Positions 41,927-56,809 of a stretch of 64,000 nucleotides of DNA are shown in pieces. Numbering within the stretch: position 1 is the first letter of the stretch; every line of letters starts with the position of its first letter. Below the pieces are notes generated by a model. It had not been told where the DNA came from and searched no databases. It was given only the letters and a program-made list of their open reading frames with translations. The translations under genes and the position numbers were made by a program. Origin of the DNA: Promethearchaeota archaeon (GTDB lineage: Archaea > Asgardarchaeota > Lokiarchaeia > Sigyniarchaeales > SOKP01); assembly GCA_019058245.1 (NCBI GenBank), contig JAHPZJ010000025.1:1-64000 (forward strand). Direction: 5' to 3'.

Positions 41927-42030
41927 CGGGCTATAGGGGAATTGAACCCCCGACCTTTCTTTTTAAGGGAGAACTTCCCATAAATGTCAGGTTAAAAGCC
42001 TGCTGCGCTACCTGCCTGCGCCAATAGCCC
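41927..42030 (-). tRNA. tRNA-Lys(UUU) with a 30-nt non-canonical intron (~44/45; about 41956-41985)
   Basis: Acceptor GGGCTAT/ATAGCCC-G, D-stem GCGC/GCGC, anticodon arm CAGG-CTTTTAA-CCTG, T-arm GGGGG-TTCAATT-CCCCT; removing 30 nt gives 74 nt. Confidence 0.88.
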
Positions 42031-43249: not shown

Positions 43250-43350
43250 GCCTCTGTGGCTTAGTGGTATAGCAACATTTCATATCATTTCGATAAAAAG
43301 GTTAAAGATTCGTAATCTGTAGATCGGGGGTTCAATTCCCCCCAGAGGCT
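43250..43350 (+). tRNA. tRNA-Thr(CGU) with a 29-nt intron in the anticodon stem (28/29 or 29/30; about 43277-43305)
   Basis: Acceptor GCCTCTG/CAGAGGC-U; splicing restores ACAGA-TTCGTAA-TCTGT; T-arm GGGGG-TTCAATT-CCCCC; mature length 72 nt. Confidence 0.92.
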
Positions 43351-43354
43351 TAAA

Positions 43355-44368
43355 TTATACTTCTTCTGTAAAAACATATCGCTTTATCATTTGCAATGCC
43401 AGCATTTTAAATGCATCATTAATATTTTCTCCTGTTTTAGCAGATGTTTCAATATAGGAAAGATTTAATTTTTCTGCAAGGGATTCTCCTTCATTAGATG
43501 AAACAACACGGTTATCTTCCAAATCTATTTTGTTTCCAACGAGAATAAGTGATATTGATGATGAAGTACTTCTAATTTCTTTAAACCAATTTTCTAAACT
43601 TTCAAATGTATCTTTGCGAGTTACATCATATACTAAAATTCCAGCTTCCGCATTTGAGAGGTAAGTTTGTCTCACACGCTTGAATTGTGCTTGGCCTGCC
43701 AAATCCCAAATAACAAAGCGAACTTTTGATTCTAATCCTTGAAAATCACATTCCTTTTTCATTATAGATGTTCCAATTGTAGATTTGTAGTCAGTTTGAA
43801 ACGAATCTTCAACAAAACGATGAACCATGCTTGTTTTTCCTACTCCTCCTTCACCACCAAGGATGAGTTTAAATGCATATTCTCCTGATTGTACCTTTAT
43901 TTTTTGAAGTGTGTCTAATTTTCTTTCAATATTTTTGGTTTCTTTTTCAGTGACTAATTTTGGTATTACAGGACTCACTGTTCTCCCATCAAATATTCTC
44001 GCAATTTTCTCAGCAGCTAGATAGGCATAAGGAAAAACAGGATCCACCATTGCAACTGATGTTAAGACTGTTACAAAAATCGCTTCGGGTCCAGCTTCGC
44101 AGAAAATGAATCTTTGATCTTCAGTGTCAAAAGTTCCTGTTCCAAAAGAACCTGAACTAAATTCTTCGGTGATTCTAGTTAAAACAGGTTCTACTAAGGC
44201 ACTAACTCCACCTATAACATCTTCCTCTACCTCAGTATCTTCAGCCCCTTTTAAAGCAGACATTACTAAACCTTCTCTATTCACTATAAGAGTAGCGATC
44301 AAATTTTCTCCAATTTCCTGCTTATACCATTTAAGCAATGCTTCAAGTTTTTTTCTATCGACTGACAT
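43355..44368 (-). CDS. Roadblock/LC7 domain fused to a Rab-like GTPase (likely start 44368)
   Basis: N-terminal LIATLIVNREGLV...IFCEAGPEAIFV; C-terminal GEGGVGKT, STIG, WDLAGQ, NKID, ETSAK. Confidence 0.9.
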   Translation of the reverse strand: MSVDRKKLEALLKWYKQEIGENLIATLIVNREGLVMSALKGAEDTEVEEDVIGGVSALVEPVLTRITEEFSSGSFGTGTFDTEDQRFIFCEAGPEAIFVTVLTSVAMVDPVFPYAYLAAEKIARIFDGRTVSPVIPKLVTEKETKNIERKLDTLQKIKVQSGEYAFKLILGGEGGVGKTSMVHRFVEDSFQTDYKSTIGTSIMKKECDFQGLESKVRFVIWDLAGQAQFKRVRQTYLSNAEAGILVYDVTRKDTFESLENWFKEIRSTSSSISLILVGNKIDLEDNRVVSSNEGESLAEKLNLSYIETSAKTGENINDAFKMLALQMIKRYVFTEEV

Positions 44369-44734
44369 GGATTCGATAACCTTTCTTATTTCTATGCAAG
44401 TGTAATACAAAATAACCTAAATATATTTTTATATAATAGGTTTGTTATTAAAATTTATAGAAAAAGATAAGTCTCAAGAAAACACGAATTAAAAGTTCAA
44501 TATGAATTAGGAAATTTAAATCTCTTCTTTTTATAATTAAAATTTTTTTAAGATAAATTTCATTCCAATCTTCTTTCTTATAACGCTATTAAAGACATTG
44601 AATATAATTATATTCCTAAATACTCTTTTTTTTTTAACATACTGAATATTATTCGGTTTAATATCAAAACATTTAAATATTATATCTAATATTATCTAAT
44701 TAGTGAATCTAGTTCGTTTGAAGAGGTTTTAAAT

Positions 44735-45191: not shown

Positions 45192-45398
45192 GCAGGGGTA
45201 GCCAAGATTCTAGAATATATCATCTAGAACTCTACTAGATTGCCTCTATTAGACTAGAATGGAAATTTGGTCTACGGTGCTAGAATATTACGTGATTATA
45301 CGTCTATGGTGAGACTGAGGCTCTAGTGACATAGGTCTTCGTGGGTTCGAAAATCGACGTAAGTTATACGAATTCGATAGAAAATCCCACCTCCTGCA
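45192..45398 (+). tRNA. tRNA-Leu(GAG) with three non-canonical introns: 15/16 (45207-45265), 30/31 (45284-45313), 59/60 (45352-45384)
   Basis: Acceptor GCAGGGG/CTCCTGC-A; removing 59+30+33 nt gives an 85-nt type II cloverleaf with CTAGA-CTGAGGC-TCTAG, variable arm GAC-ATAG-GTC and GTGGG-TTCGAAT-CCCAC; each junction folds as a relaxed BHB. Confidence 0.9.
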
Positions 45399-45544
45399 TC
45401 TAATAATAAATCAGCCATTTAATCAAAATATCTATTTAATTTTTCATTCAAATAAAGTTCAAAATTATTTTCAATTATTAAGTGATAAATGTAATAAATA
45501 TTCGATAGAAAACGTAAATAGGTAATTAAAAATTGGCACTCAAA

Positions 45545-48500
45545 TTAAAAAAAATCAGCTAATTTATGCTGCTTTAATTTAGGATTATTTGTCAAACTTT
45601 CTACATATTCCTCTATTAGTTCCATCCTTTGTTTTGTATAATCATCTAAATTAAAACTTTTGCATAAATCTTTGGCACGAGGTATATATTTTTCAATCCC
45701 TCCACGATTAACTGTTAATATTACTCGATTACCACATTTAGGACATTTTCCCCCATTCGAAATCGGAGGTCGTCTATATTTTTCATTACATTTAACGCAT
45801 CGAAATTTTTGAACTGAGAATTTTCTTAAATTTCCCAGTATATCAGGATTAAAATGAGTGGTTAATATCTTTTCTGCTACATTTTTTGCGTCCACAGCTT
45901 TTATAATTCTTGCTAGGTGAAGTTGAGCATTAATTTTATCATCCATTGTCTCATATGTTTTATAAGCAGAAGTTATTGGTCCCTCATTTATATTATCGGT
46001 AGGTATATTATACCAAATATTTTCATATTGATTGGGTGTTCCTAAATGGCTTTTCACTAACTTCATTAGCTTTTCAATTTCAGAAGGAGAACAGTATCTT
46101 TCTGTAGCCTTATAAAATTCTAATGGATATTTTTGTAAAGTATCTATATTATGTGCTTCGATGTCTATCTCATTAGGGTCAATCTTTGTACCAATTACCA
46201 AAGTAGCATCCATTCTACCACCAATTTTACTTGGAAGATAATGTCTTGAAAAATTCAATAAAGGATCTAAGAGTAGCATTACTCCATCTTCATCACCGTC
46301 GCAATTTCTTCTCTTTGCAGCATGCCAAAAAGGATGGGCATAAATAGATCGAGCTGGGGTAGATCCTATTATTCTACCTATTATTCCCGCACTAGTATGT
46401 GGTGCTAGACCTACAACTAGATGTCCAATTAAATTATCTCTAGCTATTATATTGTAGAAAGGTTCCATATGATAAAATAGTGTTAATTCATCATCCAGAA
46501 AATTAGCTACTTTAACAAAATATTCTGCGCAATCATCGGAAAGGATTATATCTTGTACTTTCAATTCTAAAATCTGATTATCATCTATGAGAGGATTTCC
46601 TTTAATATCATTTCCATATCCTAAATCTTTTAGGGTGTCAATGGACGTTCCGATTTCTTTAGGTGTAAAATGAGTTAAAGGTATATCAGTAGCATCGTAT
46701 CTTATTTCTGCTGTTTTGTAAACTAGTACATCATTTTTTGCCCTTAAAATACCTTTTTCAATAGGCTCAGGAACTTTATACTCATTTGTTAATCCAATTA
46801 TTCCCTTTAATTTCTTGGGTAATTGAATTTTAAGTTTTTCTAAAACTTGACTAATATATTCCTTTATATTAAATTTTGCCTCACTAGATGTTTCCAGCCG
46901 ATTGTTGCATTTTGGACAAGTAATTTCATAAGTAGGGTATAGCGTCTTACAATGTGAACATATTTTTTGTAATTCAGTATGCATTCCACAATTAGGACAA
47001 ATATTAAAAATACTTGATCTTCCACAATTTAAACATTTTTTTCTGCATACATCAATTCTAATTTTACCCGTTTCAAAAACATTTTTTTTACTACTAATAT
47101 TAAACGAATTCTTTTTTTTGGATTCTGTTTCATTATCACCTTTTTTTTTACCAGTGTATTCTATTGCCTTTTCAAATAATCTTGTACTCCCAACAACATT
47201 ACTCAAAGGAAAAAGGGCATGAACACCTTTCATACTTTTTTTCTCTGCCTTTTCAGGTCGTCCCATTCTCGATCCCATAAAATATGGGGCCTTATTTTTA
47301 ATTTTAATCAATGAAATCTTATTAAAATAAGAAAATACATTATCCTCACTTTCTATTTCCTTACATTTTTTATCATTTAAATTAAAAATAGTTTTATATA
47401 TGAAATTCATACTTTCACTAAAAACTATTTTACTATTTTTTATTTTATGAGGAATAAATGCTTTTTCCAGAATTTTTTTAATCGATTCCTCATTTTTTAA
47501 AACAATTAGTTGTTCTGATTCAGAAAAATTCTTTATAAATTCTGTTCGTAATGTAATTAACTCTGTAACTGTCAAATTTCCCCAGAAATCTAGATAAAAA
47601 GGATGTAAGGGAATATCATATTTTTTCGAAATCTGGACAGCTTCTTGCGCTGTAGGAATCACTTTAAAAGGATTTTTAATAAAATTTTTTAACCTCTCAT
47701 CAACATCTCCTTCATTTTTAAGAGAATTTTCCAATTCTAGTGCCCACCATTCTTCAACATACCCAGAAGGTATTAATATATGATTATTTTCGGTAAATTC
47801 TCCATAACCAAATAGTATATCACCTAAAAATAATACTTCTTCAATTTCTGAAAAAAAAGTCTTGGCCTTTTTAACACTTGAGATTTTTATTACATTCCCA
47901 TTTTTCAGTTTTACAATTGGACCAGCAATATTATTAACTGGACATATACTAGTACTTTTACCCGGACGTTCAATTCTCAACTGTGTGCCAATTGCAACAA
48001 AATCATCTAATAATGCCATCGTAGCAGGATGCATTCCGCCTGCAGCTAAACCAGTATTTCTAGATCGCCCATATCTTATCCTATGACCCCCTATTTTTGA
48101 GGGATGACTAAAAACAGGGCGTCCTGCGATAATATCTGCAATATATTTCGAGTTTGGTGTGATTTTTAATTCTATTCGTTCCTCATTTTGCTTTCTTTTT
48201 TCTTTCGGTTCTTGATGTTGAGCAATTTTCTTTAAATCTGCCAACCAATCCCAACCTTCTAAGTTCATAGCTTTAGCTATCTTTAGTAACTTTGGTGCCT
48301 TAAGTAAAATGCCATCATTTAAAACTAAGCAAGCACCACCTCTTATTTTATTTGTTTCAATCCTAGGTAAATCTCTAAAAGCTGAAACCTCTTCATCCTC
48401 AGTTGAATCACCATTTATTTCCACAGGTAAATTGCTGACAGCATATCGAATCTCTTTAGTAGATGAAGGGTATTGCAAATGCACTCTTCTATCATATAAT

Positions 48501-49066
48501 TTTACCTCTTCAACGTATCGACCAATTTCCCCATCAGTTGCTTTATATTTAGGAAGATTTGATTTTTTTCTTACATAATCTGCAATTAATACACATAAAG
48601 CCGTAGTAGTACCTCCTGCAGCTCGAATGGGGCCCGCAAAGTATAATGATAAATATTTTTTTCCTAAATTATCTTCTCGAATTAAAATTTTAGAAATACC
48701 TTCTAGTGGTGCACTTACAACCCCCATAGTTTTAATTGCTAAACCTACTCTAATAGCTCTATCCACTCGCGCCTCTAATGTATCAATACTTCCAATTTTT
48801 CTATCTAAAATATCAGTAACTACTTTAAAAATTAGTTCATCTTCAGTTAAGTCCTTCTTTTTTAACTCCCTTATTAATTCTGCCACTCCTTTTGGCCCTA
48901 CCAATTTCTCTACCCTTCCTGCTAAATCTTTTGCTTGAGGGGATTCCACTTCTAATTCAGGATCTAATCCTTTTTGTCGTGCTCTTTCTGCAATTGAATA
49001 GCACTTATCTACTTGTTTTTGAATTTGATTAAAGTATAATTCCATCGTTTTGCTCATATCATGCAA
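45545..49066 (-). CDS. polC: DNA polymerase D large subunit DP2
   Basis: FAGPIRAAGGT, RYGRSRNTG, HAAKRRNCDGDED, C-terminal PIP box QHKLADFF; no intein. Confidence 0.98.
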   Translation of the reverse strand: MHDMSKTMELYFNQIQKQVDKCYSIAERARQKGLDPELEVESPQAKDLAGRVEKLVGPKGVAELIRELKKKDLTEDELIFKVVTDILDRKIGSIDTLEARVDRAIRVGLAIKTMGVVSAPLEGISKILIREDNLGKKYLSLYFAGPIRAAGGTTTALCVLIADYVRKKSNLPKYKATDGEIGRYVEEVKLYDRRVHLQYPSSTKEIRYAVSNLPVEINGDSTEDEEVSAFRDLPRIETNKIRGGACLVLNDGILLKAPKLLKIAKAMNLEGWDWLADLKKIAQHQEPKEKRKQNEERIELKITPNSKYIADIIAGRPVFSHPSKIGGHRIRYGRSRNTGLAAGGMHPATMALLDDFVAIGTQLRIERPGKSTSICPVNNIAGPIVKLKNGNVIKISSVKKAKTFFSEIEEVLFLGDILFGYGEFTENNHILIPSGYVEEWWALELENSLKNEGDVDERLKNFIKNPFKVIPTAQEAVQISKKYDIPLHPFYLDFWGNLTVTELITLRTEFIKNFSESEQLIVLKNEESIKKILEKAFIPHKIKNSKIVFSESMNFIYKTIFNLNDKKCKEIESEDNVFSYFNKISLIKIKNKAPYFMGSRMGRPEKAEKKSMKGVHALFPLSNVVGSTRLFEKAIEYTGKKKGDNETESKKKNSFNISSKKNVFETGKIRIDVCRKKCLNCGRSSIFNICPNCGMHTELQKICSHCKTLYPTYEITCPKCNNRLETSSEAKFNIKEYISQVLEKLKIQLPKKLKGIIGLTNEYKVPEPIEKGILRAKNDVLVYKTAEIRYDATDIPLTHFTPKEIGTSIDTLKDLGYGNDIKGNPLIDDNQILELKVQDIILSDDCAEYFVKVANFLDDELTLFYHMEPFYNIIARDNLIGHLVVGLAPHTSAGIIGRIIGSTPARSIYAHPFWHAAKRRNCDGDEDGVMLLLDPLLNFSRHYLPSKIGGRMDATLVIGTKIDPNEIDIEAHNIDTLQKYPLEFYKATERYCSPSEIEKLMKLVKSHLGTPNQYENIWYNIPTDNINEGPITSAYKTYETMDDKINAQLHLARIIKAVDAKNVAEKILTTHFNPDILGNLRKFSVQKFRCVKCNEKYRRPPISNGGKCPKCGNRVILTVNRGGIEKYIPRAKDLCKSFNLDDYTKQRMELIEEYVESLTNNPKLKQHKLADFF

Positions 49067-55336: not shown

Positions 55337-56809
55337 TTAACCTTTCACTACACCAATAGGAACAAATCTCACTACTTTTTCAACAATTCCAAGATCATGG
55401 CTAACTTGAACAACTTGATCTATATCCTTATAAGCACCAGGAGCCTCTTCAGCAATAACTTTCATCGCAGCAGCTCGAATTATGATACCTTTTTTGCTTA
55501 AATCCTCTTTAACACGTTCTCCCCAGTACTTCTTTGTTGCTTTTGATCTTGACATTACCCTTCCTGAACCATGAGCTGTCGAACCAAAAGAAAGATCCAT
55601 GGCCTTTGGTTTACCAACACATAAATAAGAAGCAGAACCCATAGTTCCTGGAATTAAAGCTGGCTGTCCTATTGATTTATAATCATTTGGCAAAGCTGGA
55701 TGTTCAGGAGGAAAAGCTCTTGTTGCACCTTTTCTATGAACATTCAATTTCATTTTCTTACCATTTACTTCATGCTCCTCTATTTTTAATATATTATGGC
55801 AAACTCCATAAATTAAATGCATATCTAAATCATCAAAATCCTTTTTAAATGTATTTTGAAAGGATTCTCTTAACCAGTGAGTAATAAGTTGACGATTTGT
55901 GAACCCAAAATTTGCAGCACAACCCATTTGTTTCAAATAATTCTGGGCTTCTGGTGTGTCAGCCGGTACACAAGCTAACTCTCTATCTGGTACCTTAATA
56001 TCATATTTCTTCATCGCTTGTTCGATATTGCGTAATGAATCAGTACACACTTGATGTCCAAGAGCTCTACTCCCTGTATGTACCATAACTGTAATTTGAT
56101 CCTTTCTATTTATACCTAAAGCTTTTGCAATAGTCTCATTGTAAATTTTATCAACTTTCTGAATTTCCAAAAAATGATTCCCACTCCCTAACGATCCTAG
56201 TTGTTTAATAGCTCGCTGTTTTGCTTTTTGGGAAACTAAACTCGCATCAGCATCTTTTAAACATCCATTCTCCTCTAAATGTGTAAGATCCTCTTCAATA
56301 GCATAGTCATTTTCTATTGCCCAATTCACACCATTGTTTAGAACATCATCTAAATCTGAAAAACTTATATTTAGCTTACCTTTTGAACCTAATCCTGAAG
56401 GGATATTGTTAAAAATACTATCCAAGAGAGTTGGCAGCACACCCTTAACATCGCTAAGGGTTAAATTCGATCGAAGCAGACGAACCCCACAATTTATATC
56501 ATATCCTACTCCACCTGGAGAAATCATCCCACTCTCTGCATCTGTCCCTGCAACACCTCCAATACAAAATCCATATCCCTGGTGAGCATCCGAAAGAGCA
56601 ATCGCATGCTTCTCTATCCCTGGTAAACACGCTACATTGCAAATTTGATCTATTGTACGATCTAATCGAATCTTTTCTAATATATATTCATTCGCATAAA
56701 TCTTCACCGGAACCCTCATCTCAAATTTCTCAATTATCCCTTTAGTCCTTGCCATCAACGTCTTTGGAGGAATCTCGTAGATATTGTCTGCTATTTTATT
56801 TACATTCAT
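55337..56809 (-). CDS. rtcB: RNA-splicing ligase RtcB
   Basis: DAHQGYGF, GYDINCGVR, GSGNHF, HRKGATR, HGSGR, YKD; no intein. Confidence 0.97.
   Translation of the reverse strand: MNVNKIADNIYEIPPKTLMARTKGIIEKFEMRVPVKIYANEYILEKIRLDRTIDQICNVACLPGIEKHAIALSDAHQGYGFCIGGVAGTDAESGMISPGGVGYDINCGVRLLRSNLTLSDVKGVLPTLLDSIFNNIPSGLGSKGKLNISFSDLDDVLNNGVNWAIENDYAIEEDLTHLEENGCLKDADASLVSQKAKQRAIKQLGSLGSGNHFLEIQKVDKIYNETIAKALGINRKDQITVMVHTGSRALGHQVCTDSLRNIEQAMKKYDIKVPDRELACVPADTPEAQNYLKQMGCAANFGFTNRQLITHWLRESFQNTFKKDFDDLDMHLIYGVCHNILKIEEHEVNGKKMKLNVHRKGATRAFPPEHPALPNDYKSIGQPALIPGTMGSASYLCVGKPKAMDLSFGSTAHGSGRVMSRSKATKKYWGERVKEDLSKKGIIIRAAAMKVIAEEAPGAYKDIDQVVQVSHDLGIVEKVVRFVPIGVVKG

Follow-up and report, generated by a model that had tools for sequence, protein, structure and literature searches.

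A probable within-gene copy of a bulge-helix-bulge intron in the tRNA-Leu(GAG) gene of a Loki-type Asgard archaeon

The tRNA-Leu(GAG) gene of a Loki-type Asgard archaeon, situated in a stretch of 64,000 nucleotides that we analysed (the window; contig JAHPZJ010000025.1, assembly GCA_019058245.1), is interrupted by three predicted bulge-helix-bulge (BHB) introns. Comparison across the genus suggests that introns 2 and 3 are paralogs, and that the T-loop intron 3 was derived from the anticodon-stem intron 2 in the ancestor of one small subclade. We assign this reading a probability of about 0.68. Sister species carry a second copy of intron 2 in the D-loop of the same gene, and there the duplication is unmistakable.

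Results

Structure of the gene and its surroundings

The gene adjoins a Ras-family GTPase gene on one side and the gene for the large subunit of DNA polymerase D (PolD) on the other (Table 1), in a window with a G+C content of 29%. When the three introns were removed in silico, the remaining 85 nt gave a perfect tRNA-Leu(gag) in ARAGORN; neither ARAGORN nor Rfam called a tRNA in the unspliced gene. All three inserts are predicted BHB introns. The BHB geometry is present in a relaxed form; a short helix flanked by two 3-nt bulges can be drawn at each predicted pair of splice sites. The central helix of intron 1, GCCA/UGGA, has three Watson-Crick pairs and a G.A apposition, with bulges AGA and AAU, and that of intron 2 is UGCU/GGUG with bulges AGA and AGA. 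Around intron 3 the T stem is followed by the bulge AAA, the helix UUCG:AGAA (three Watson-Crick pairs and G.A, a purine-purine apposition), the bulge AAU and the helix AUCGA:UCGAU.

Table 1. Features of the tRNA-Leu(GAG) locus in the window
Feature	Position	Strand	Remarks
Ras-family GTPase gene	43355-44410	-	adjoins tRNA-Leu(GAG)
tRNA-Leu(GAG) gene	45192-45398	+	207 nt, four exons and three introns; ARAGORN on spliced product, ortholog synteny
Exon 1	45192-45206	+	tRNA positions 1-15
Intron 1 (family I15)	45207-45265	+	59 nt, D-loop 15/16; ends ambiguous in repeated AUU
Exon 2	45266-45283	+	tRNA positions 16-30
Intron 2 (family I30)	45284-45313	+	30 nt, anticodon stem 30/31; 1-nt shift possible (A at both ends)
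Core of intron 2, ACGTGATTATACG	45290-45302	+	shared with intron 3; apical hairpin ACGU-GAUUAU-ACGU
Exon 3	45314-45351	+	tRNA positions 31-59: anticodon loop GAG, variable arm, 5' half of T arm
Intron 3 (family IT')	45352-45384	+	33 nt, T-loop 59/60; register ambiguous in A run
Core of intron 3, ACGTAAGTTATACG	45357-45370	+	shared with intron 2; apical hairpin CGUA-AGUUA-UACG
Exon 4	45385-45398	+	tRNA positions 60-73
PolD large-subunit gene	45545-49066	-	adjoins tRNA-Leu(GAG)
RtcB RNA ligase gene	55340-56647	-	PF01139, 566 bits; 10 kb from tRNA-Leu(GAG)

The genome encodes two EndA paralogs of 197 and 200 aa that are 30% identical and have both N-terminal and catalytic domains, the arrangement expected for a two-subunit enzyme. 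Introns 2 and 3 would presumably both be cut by this two-subunit EndA, and the exons joined by the RtcB ligase. The nearest homologs of the GTPase come from metagenome-assembled genomes named Promethearchaeota or Lokiarchaeota and from Loki's Castle sediment sequences, which identifies the host as a Loki-type Asgard archaeon. Only 17 tRNAs were detected by Rfam in the genome. Two other tRNA genes nearby have inserts of about 30 nt at non-canonical sites, which in one gene is 3' of the anticodon arm (41927-42030, minus strand) and in the other within that arm (43250-43350, plus strand; ARAGORN gives Ile(GAT) with an intron, an identity that is provisional).

Introns 2 and 3 share a core

The sequence-only reading of the window had proposed that introns 2 and 3 contain a common core that forms the apical hairpin in each. 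Both core strings were found exactly at the positions given in Table 1, and each intron, folded alone, places its core in an apical hairpin. Intron 2 pairs ACGU with ACGU around a 6-nt loop in its centroid fold, and intron 3 pairs CGUA with UACG around a 5-nt loop. The hairpin of intron 2 is weak, at -2 kcal/mol, and not better than in shuffled sequences. Both introns also begin with AAT (45284 and 45352), as had been remarked; this carries little weight, because most introns at the locus start with AAT or ATT.

Two CG dinucleotides in the same register had further been considered unlikely to arise by chance in such AT-rich DNA. For the match as a whole the answer varies with the test. It exceeds chance end to end, where 21 identities over 30 and 33 nt, with three indels, gave p-values of 0.0014 against mononucleotide, 0.009 against dinucleotide and 0.002 against structure-preserving shuffles. 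In local alignment of the two introns of the window alone the excess is only marginal, where 12 of 14 matching positions gave 0.015 (mononucleotide), 0.047-0.05 (dinucleotide) and 0.012 (structure-preserving). Intron 1 showed no significant similarity to intron 2 or 3 in end-to-end and pairwise shuffle tests. The match between introns 2 and 3 in the window thus appears real but modest when taken alone, and the comparative data carry the case.

A 22-nt stretch at 45491-45512, located 128 nt downstream of intron 3, repeats the 3' end of that intron at 18 of 22 positions, 13 of them in an exact run (ATTCGATAGAAAA). The repeat was not seen in the printed 260-nt downstream spacers of two relatives (G024 and G052), and it could be due to chance or to a small recent duplication.

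Intron families of the gene across the genus

We compared 54 genomes of the genus, 52 of which have an orthologous tRNA-Leu(GAG) gene between the same Ras-type GTPase and PolD genes, together with three metagenome contigs that were found by scanning with a 20-mer spanning exon and intron. Four contigs retrieved through the neighbouring GTPase gene yielded two further tRNA genes, both with 30/31 and variable-region introns, and no new lineage with an intron 3 like that of the window. The intron sets of the orthologs vary widely. They fall into seven families, which we mapped on a PolD tree of 51 genomes rooted with another family, a single-gene proxy for the species tree (Table 2). One genome (G049) was left off the tree although it has the gene, because its PolD region reads with internal stops.

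Table 2. Intron families of tRNA-Leu(GAG) on the PolD tree of 51 genomes
Family	tRNA position	Genomes with intron	Fewest changes on tree
I15	15/16	11	7
ID14	14/15	11	1
ID21	about 21/22	7	2
I30	30/31	41	3
IV (variable-region)	about 47/48	24	4
IT (classic, GAUC hairpin)	59/60	14	7
IT' (window type)	59/60	4	2

Mapping presence and absence in this way showed that I30, the family of intron 2, is widespread and that IT', the family of intron 3, is found only in one small subclade. I30 occurs in every major clade, the basal ones included (41 of 51 genomes on the proxy tree, against four for IT'). Its central helix keeps four standard pairs in all 42 orthologs, and in G041 a C25-to-U exon change (T25 in the gene) is compensated by a G-to-A change on the intron side of that helix. 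As judged from this pairing, I30 is a real, constrained intron. IT' is restricted to the genome of the window (G000), to G024, G052 and G041, and to two of the metagenome contigs. The four genomes are nested within a clade of 26 genomes whose remaining scored members all carry IV and none of which carries IT. Over the whole tree, IV and either type of T-loop intron never occur together in the 49 scored genomes.

Several other patterns emerged from the survey. By its PolD gene, G050 falls within the IT' clade, yet its tRNA-Leu(GAG) gene (L074) has the 30/31 and variable-region introns and is almost identical to the G049 gene (L079), which suggests replacement of the tRNA gene by recombination. 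The 59-nt intron 1 is always accompanied by the 5' exon variant GCAGGGGUA, with GCAGGAGUU elsewhere (window 45192-45265; L020-L022, L024, L048, L049, L051-L053, L164). It is scattered on the tree, with seven changes, and is present in G066 while its near-identical relatives G005, G044 and G046 are without it; the pattern looks like exchange of a 5' gene segment between species. In the classic T-loop introns of G018 and G012, AUCUCCUCGA(U/C)CU agrees with the variable-region intron at 12 of 13 positions (p about 0.005; the other variants gave no significant match), and this may reflect another relocation inside the gene, from 59/60 to approximately 47/48. Finally, the PolD large-subunit frames of G052:C75 and G045:C87 (L131 and L107) are about 1,660-1,670 aa long against the usual 1,175-1,190 or so, and the insert near residue 925 is probably an intein.

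An unmistakable copy of I30 in the D-loop

Eleven sister genomes carry a 30-nt intron in the D-loop at position 14/15 (family ID14) that aligns without gaps to the I30 intron of the same gene, with up to 28 of 30 positions identical. These are G006, G011, G007, G009, G017, G003, G057, G054, G042, G059 and G065, with the loci L028-L033, L059, L060, L062, L065 and L069 in this order. In G009, for example, the two introns differ at 2 of 30 positions. Where I30 and the D-loop intron differ, they do so within the six 3'-terminal nucleotides (GGCGUA versus GGCUAA), the ones that have to pair with the local exon. The D-loop intron has a single origin on the PolD tree, in one clade. The exon is not duplicated at the site, and the insertion is precise. 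On its alignment, the D-loop intron is an unmistakable within-gene copy of I30, and the clearest duplication at the locus. There was no significant concerted evolution between the two (permutation p 0.14).

We then looked at how far the family extends. A degenerate pattern allowing up to three mismatches gave 27 matches in the 54 genomes, of which 24 lie in this Leu gene; the three elsewhere equal the chance level, a control pattern also giving three. The I30 family was thus not found in another tRNA gene with this pattern. In the genome of the window, blastn-short searches with all families and an ungapped whole-genome profile scan returned no further copy, only AT-rich chance matches. The distribution is that of a family which multiplied inside one gene and did not spread to other tRNA genes.

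Intron 3 resembles I30 in its unconstrained interior

We compared intron 3 with a profile built from 22 I30 and D-loop introns of the sister clade, with zero sequences from the clade of the window. The four genomic IT' introns scored 14.3-19.3 bits, and true I30 introns of other clades score in the same range. By comparison, the 56 other introns at the locus (IT, IV, I15 and ID21) reached at most 11.6 bits with the same profile. For IT', the p-values were 0.002-0.02 against dinucleotide shuffles and from <0.0005 to 0.0045 against structure-preserving shuffles. Among random 33-mers of the genome, 4 of 4,000 reached 17.3 bits, and over about 18 kb around the other tRNAs of the genome and the Leu(CAA) genes the highest score was 14.4 bits.

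IT' occupies the same 59/60 position as the classic IT intron, and it is conceivable that intron 3 is simply a diverged vertical ortholog of IT, its resemblance to intron 2 being due to chance. Indeed, the outer ends of IT' (AAUyGA ... UCGAUrGAAwA) recur in some classic T-loop introns, namely those of G018, G067 and G062 (AAUUGA ... UCGAUGGAAUA), and unmasked IT' matches a profile of the classic intron with p-values of 0.002-0.03. We therefore repeated the profile tests on introns trimmed of their exon-dictated nucleotides, one at the 5' end and six at the 3' end. With these ends masked, the similarity to I30 persisted (p from <0.0007 to 0.009), whereas that to classic IT was not significant (p 0.02-0.2). 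The likeness to the classic intron therefore sits in the constrained ends, and the likeness to I30 in the free interior. Furthermore, classic T-loop introns are absent from all scored genomes of the 26-genome clade that surrounds IT' on the PolD tree, and chance would have to account for p-values of about 1e-3 to 1e-4 in three lineages. We consider vertical descent from the classic intron unlikely.

The derivation of IT' from I30 is also consistent with end-to-end alignments of the two introns within single genes. In G041, 23 of 30 positions are identical, with a p-value of 0.0005 against structure-preserving and 0.002 against dinucleotide shuffles. In the metagenome contig L165, 25 of 30 are identical; 0 of 4,000 structure-preserving shuffles reached the score, and the dinucleotide p-value was 1e-4. 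The corresponding structure-preserving and dinucleotide values were 0.007 and 0.05 in G024, and 0.04 and 0.06 in G052. Controls from the same gene, I30 against IT in 6 genes and I30 against IV in 25 genes, gave p-values of 0.05 to 1.0, none below 0.048. As a further yardstick, the most diverged pair of certain paralogs, I30 and the D-loop intron of G065, scores the same as introns 2 and 3 of the window (p 0.013 versus 0.009).

Contig L165 belongs to the IT' subclade, with exon U25 and an IT' intron, and its I30 is less diverged. Its two introns, AAUAUGACGUAAUUU-UACG----UCUAUGGCGUA and AAU-CGACGUAAUUUAUACGAAUUUCGAUGGAAUA, align from the first to the last nucleotide. The inner helix shows a two-sided change from A-U to C-G, and near the 3' end a change of CG to AA replaces the anticodon-stem exon CGCU by the T-loop exon UUCR as pairing partner. 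The similarity between I30 and IT' is greatest where I30 is least diverged and is lost by the local test in G024 and G052, where I30 has drifted. Such tracking of I30 divergence is a prediction of descent; a chance match in one genome would not become stronger against the introns of relatives. Introns 2 and 3 thus probably share an origin, and I30 would be the donor because it is far older than IT'.

Evidence against common descent and other possible origins

Part of the evidence points the other way. A covariance model of the I30 and D-loop family (30 positions, 7 pairs), trained on a set without indels, found every I30 and no IT' at E-values up to 10 in 93 kb of loci. A search by nhmmer with the family profile returned only the IT' of G041, weakly, and is too insensitive for 30-nt targets. 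With harsh gap penalties or no gaps the profile p-values of IT' rise to 0.007-0.1, and their significance depends on cheap gaps. All these p-values come from a comparison that was prompted by the data, among AT-rich sequences of about 30 nt whose five IT' lineages share ancestry. The claim of a common origin that the sequence-only reading had made is therefore supported by the profile, the masked-end test, the 25/30 metagenome pair and the D-loop copy in 11 species, but the strict covariance model misses intron 3.

One metagenome gene complicates the history of the T-loop site. L164 (JABAHP010001883.1) has intron 1, a 30/31 intron and an unusually long T-loop insert of 43 nt that includes two N. 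This insert joins a classic GAUC-hairpin module to an IT'-type 3' end (UUCGUGAUGGAAAA), and the gene bears the subclade exon marker T25. A resident T-loop intron may therefore predate IT', which leaves room for a chimera, or for the divergence plus chance considered above. As a chimera, intron 3 would be a resident T-loop intron of the classic type, as L164 documents for the subclade, in which short-patch conversion within the gene replaced the interior by the I30 hairpin and left the exon-pairing ends in place; the core would then be common to both introns by descent, with no new insertion of an intron. The interior of IT' is indeed like I30 and its ends like the classic intron, and I30 and the classic intron share 5' AAU and UC(U/G)AUGG near the 3' end as possible microhomology. 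However, conversion would have to act on a tract of only about 20 nt, convergence could explain the ends common to IT' and the classic intron because these are the exon-constrained parts, and even the certain paralogs I30 and its D-loop copy lack significant concerted evolution. We hold a chimeric origin to be improbable.

Rather than from intron 2, intron 3 could conceivably have come from the variable-region intron (47/48) that related species carry, either because that intron relocated or because the neighbouring exon was duplicated. In G041, UCGACGUAAAUU of IT' and UCGACCUAAAUU from the 3' end of the variable-region intron agree at 11 of 12 positions, UUCGA occurs both in IT' and in the adjacent exon, and the two kinds of intron exclude each other in the scored genomes, as described above. 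On the other hand, the profile p-value against IV was as low as 0.007 in G041 alone, the other three lineages gave 0.07-0.25, tests with masked ends gave 0.05-0.09, and several extra rearrangements would be needed. Such an origin seems very improbable.

The paralogous tRNA-Leu(CAA) gene was also considered as a source. In five genomes (G001, G049, G050, G024 and G052; L169-L173) it has a 30-nt T-loop intron at the same 59/60 site; of 25 other genomes from which it was extracted, 24 lack a T-loop intron and one (G060) has an unrelated one of 33 nt. With pairwise p-values of 0.02-0.9, this candidate was rejected.

Discussion

A proposed history of within-gene intron copying

We propose that I30 is an old resident of the tRNA-Leu(GAG) gene and that, in the common ancestor of G000, G024, G052, G041 and two metagenome relatives, a copy of it settled in the T-loop at 59/60. 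The copy would have retained 5' AAU, the apical hairpin module (G)ACGUAAnUU(A)UACG and 3' UC(U/G)AUGG; on this reading the ancestral I30 of the subclade would have carried the hairpin ACGUAAUU..UACG. The nucleotides that pair with the new exon context would have been altered from GGCG to GGAA/AGAA, the inner helix rebuilt by compensatory changes from AUA/UAU to AUCGA/UCGAU, and three small indels gained. Candidate routes of copying are reverse splicing followed by reverse transcription, insertion at the DNA level, or overwriting of an earlier T-loop intron. Precise insertion and confinement to the donor gene fit an RNA-level step, as we infer.

A more speculative extension is that copying within a gene, to a second BHB-compatible site of the pre-tRNA, is a regular but uncounted route of intron gain in Asgard archaea, represented here by 30/31 to 14/15, 30/31 to 59/60 and perhaps 59/60 to 47/48. 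If this were true, the confinement of copies to one gene would suggest an RNA-level step, in which the excised intron reinserts into its own transcript and then returns to DNA.

Relation to known systems

To our knowledge, the only sequence-based model for new intron positions in archaeal tRNA genes is the 'intron transposition' of Thermoproteales. There, related BHB introns at different positions were taken as recent gains by copying (Fujishima et al. 2010, Mol Biol Evol 27:2233, as reviewed in Yoshihisa 2014, PMC4090602). In the review's account the target sites are limited to BHB-compatible places and the mechanism is not established (PMC4090602). Our case appears to be a fresh instance of the same phenomenon, located inside one gene and with an unusually readable history. 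As in Thermoproteales, related BHB introns stand at different tRNA positions with similarity above a composition-matched background. Unlike there, donor and copy lie in one gene, the host is a Loki-type Asgard archaeon, and no members of the family were found in different tRNA genes of one genome among the 54 genomes. The intron clusters of Thermoproteales were defined by 70-80% identity (Fujishima 2010, via PMC4090602). Introns 2 and 3 of the window, with 21 of 30 positions and indels, are far more diverged, and only the D-loop copy in the sister species reaches that level.

According to work from 2007, as relayed by PMC4090602 and by the preprint cited below, archaeal tRNA genes can have up to three introns (at sites such as the D-loop, 30/31 and 59/60), with 3-nt bulges around a helix of about 4 bp and a two-subunit EndA of broad specificity. 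In contrast to the genes described there, the central helices at our locus usually have three Watson-Crick pairs and a purine-purine or U.U apposition, and the introns are known from sequence alone. Heavily interrupted tRNA genes have also been reported in Asgard archaea, with many non-canonical and multiple introns, repeated recent gains, BHB-compatible boundaries and two EndA paralogs (PMC11291895; bioRxiv 10.64898/2026.10.13.758758). Both of these studies centre on Atabeyarchaeia and Jordiarchaeia, and the string 'Lokiarchae' is absent from the text of the preprint. The preprint's census reports repeated gains and no route of arrival (bioRxiv 10.64898/2026.10.13.758758). Its test is blind to copies within one gene, so that a within-gene copy would go uncounted.

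Within a single genus, the locus provides a dated series made up of an old donor, an unmistakable copy and a probable one, and each of these introns is missing from many relatives. This allows a direct reading of the donor, of the target sites and of what changed after insertion. In this series the exon-pairing nucleotides change while the hairpin module stays, and the locus makes the mechanism testable with a defined substrate. Our results suggest that censuses of tRNA introns should also seek paralogous introns within genes. The sister introns of tRNA-Leu(GAG) would be a rare sequence trace of how BHB introns multiply.
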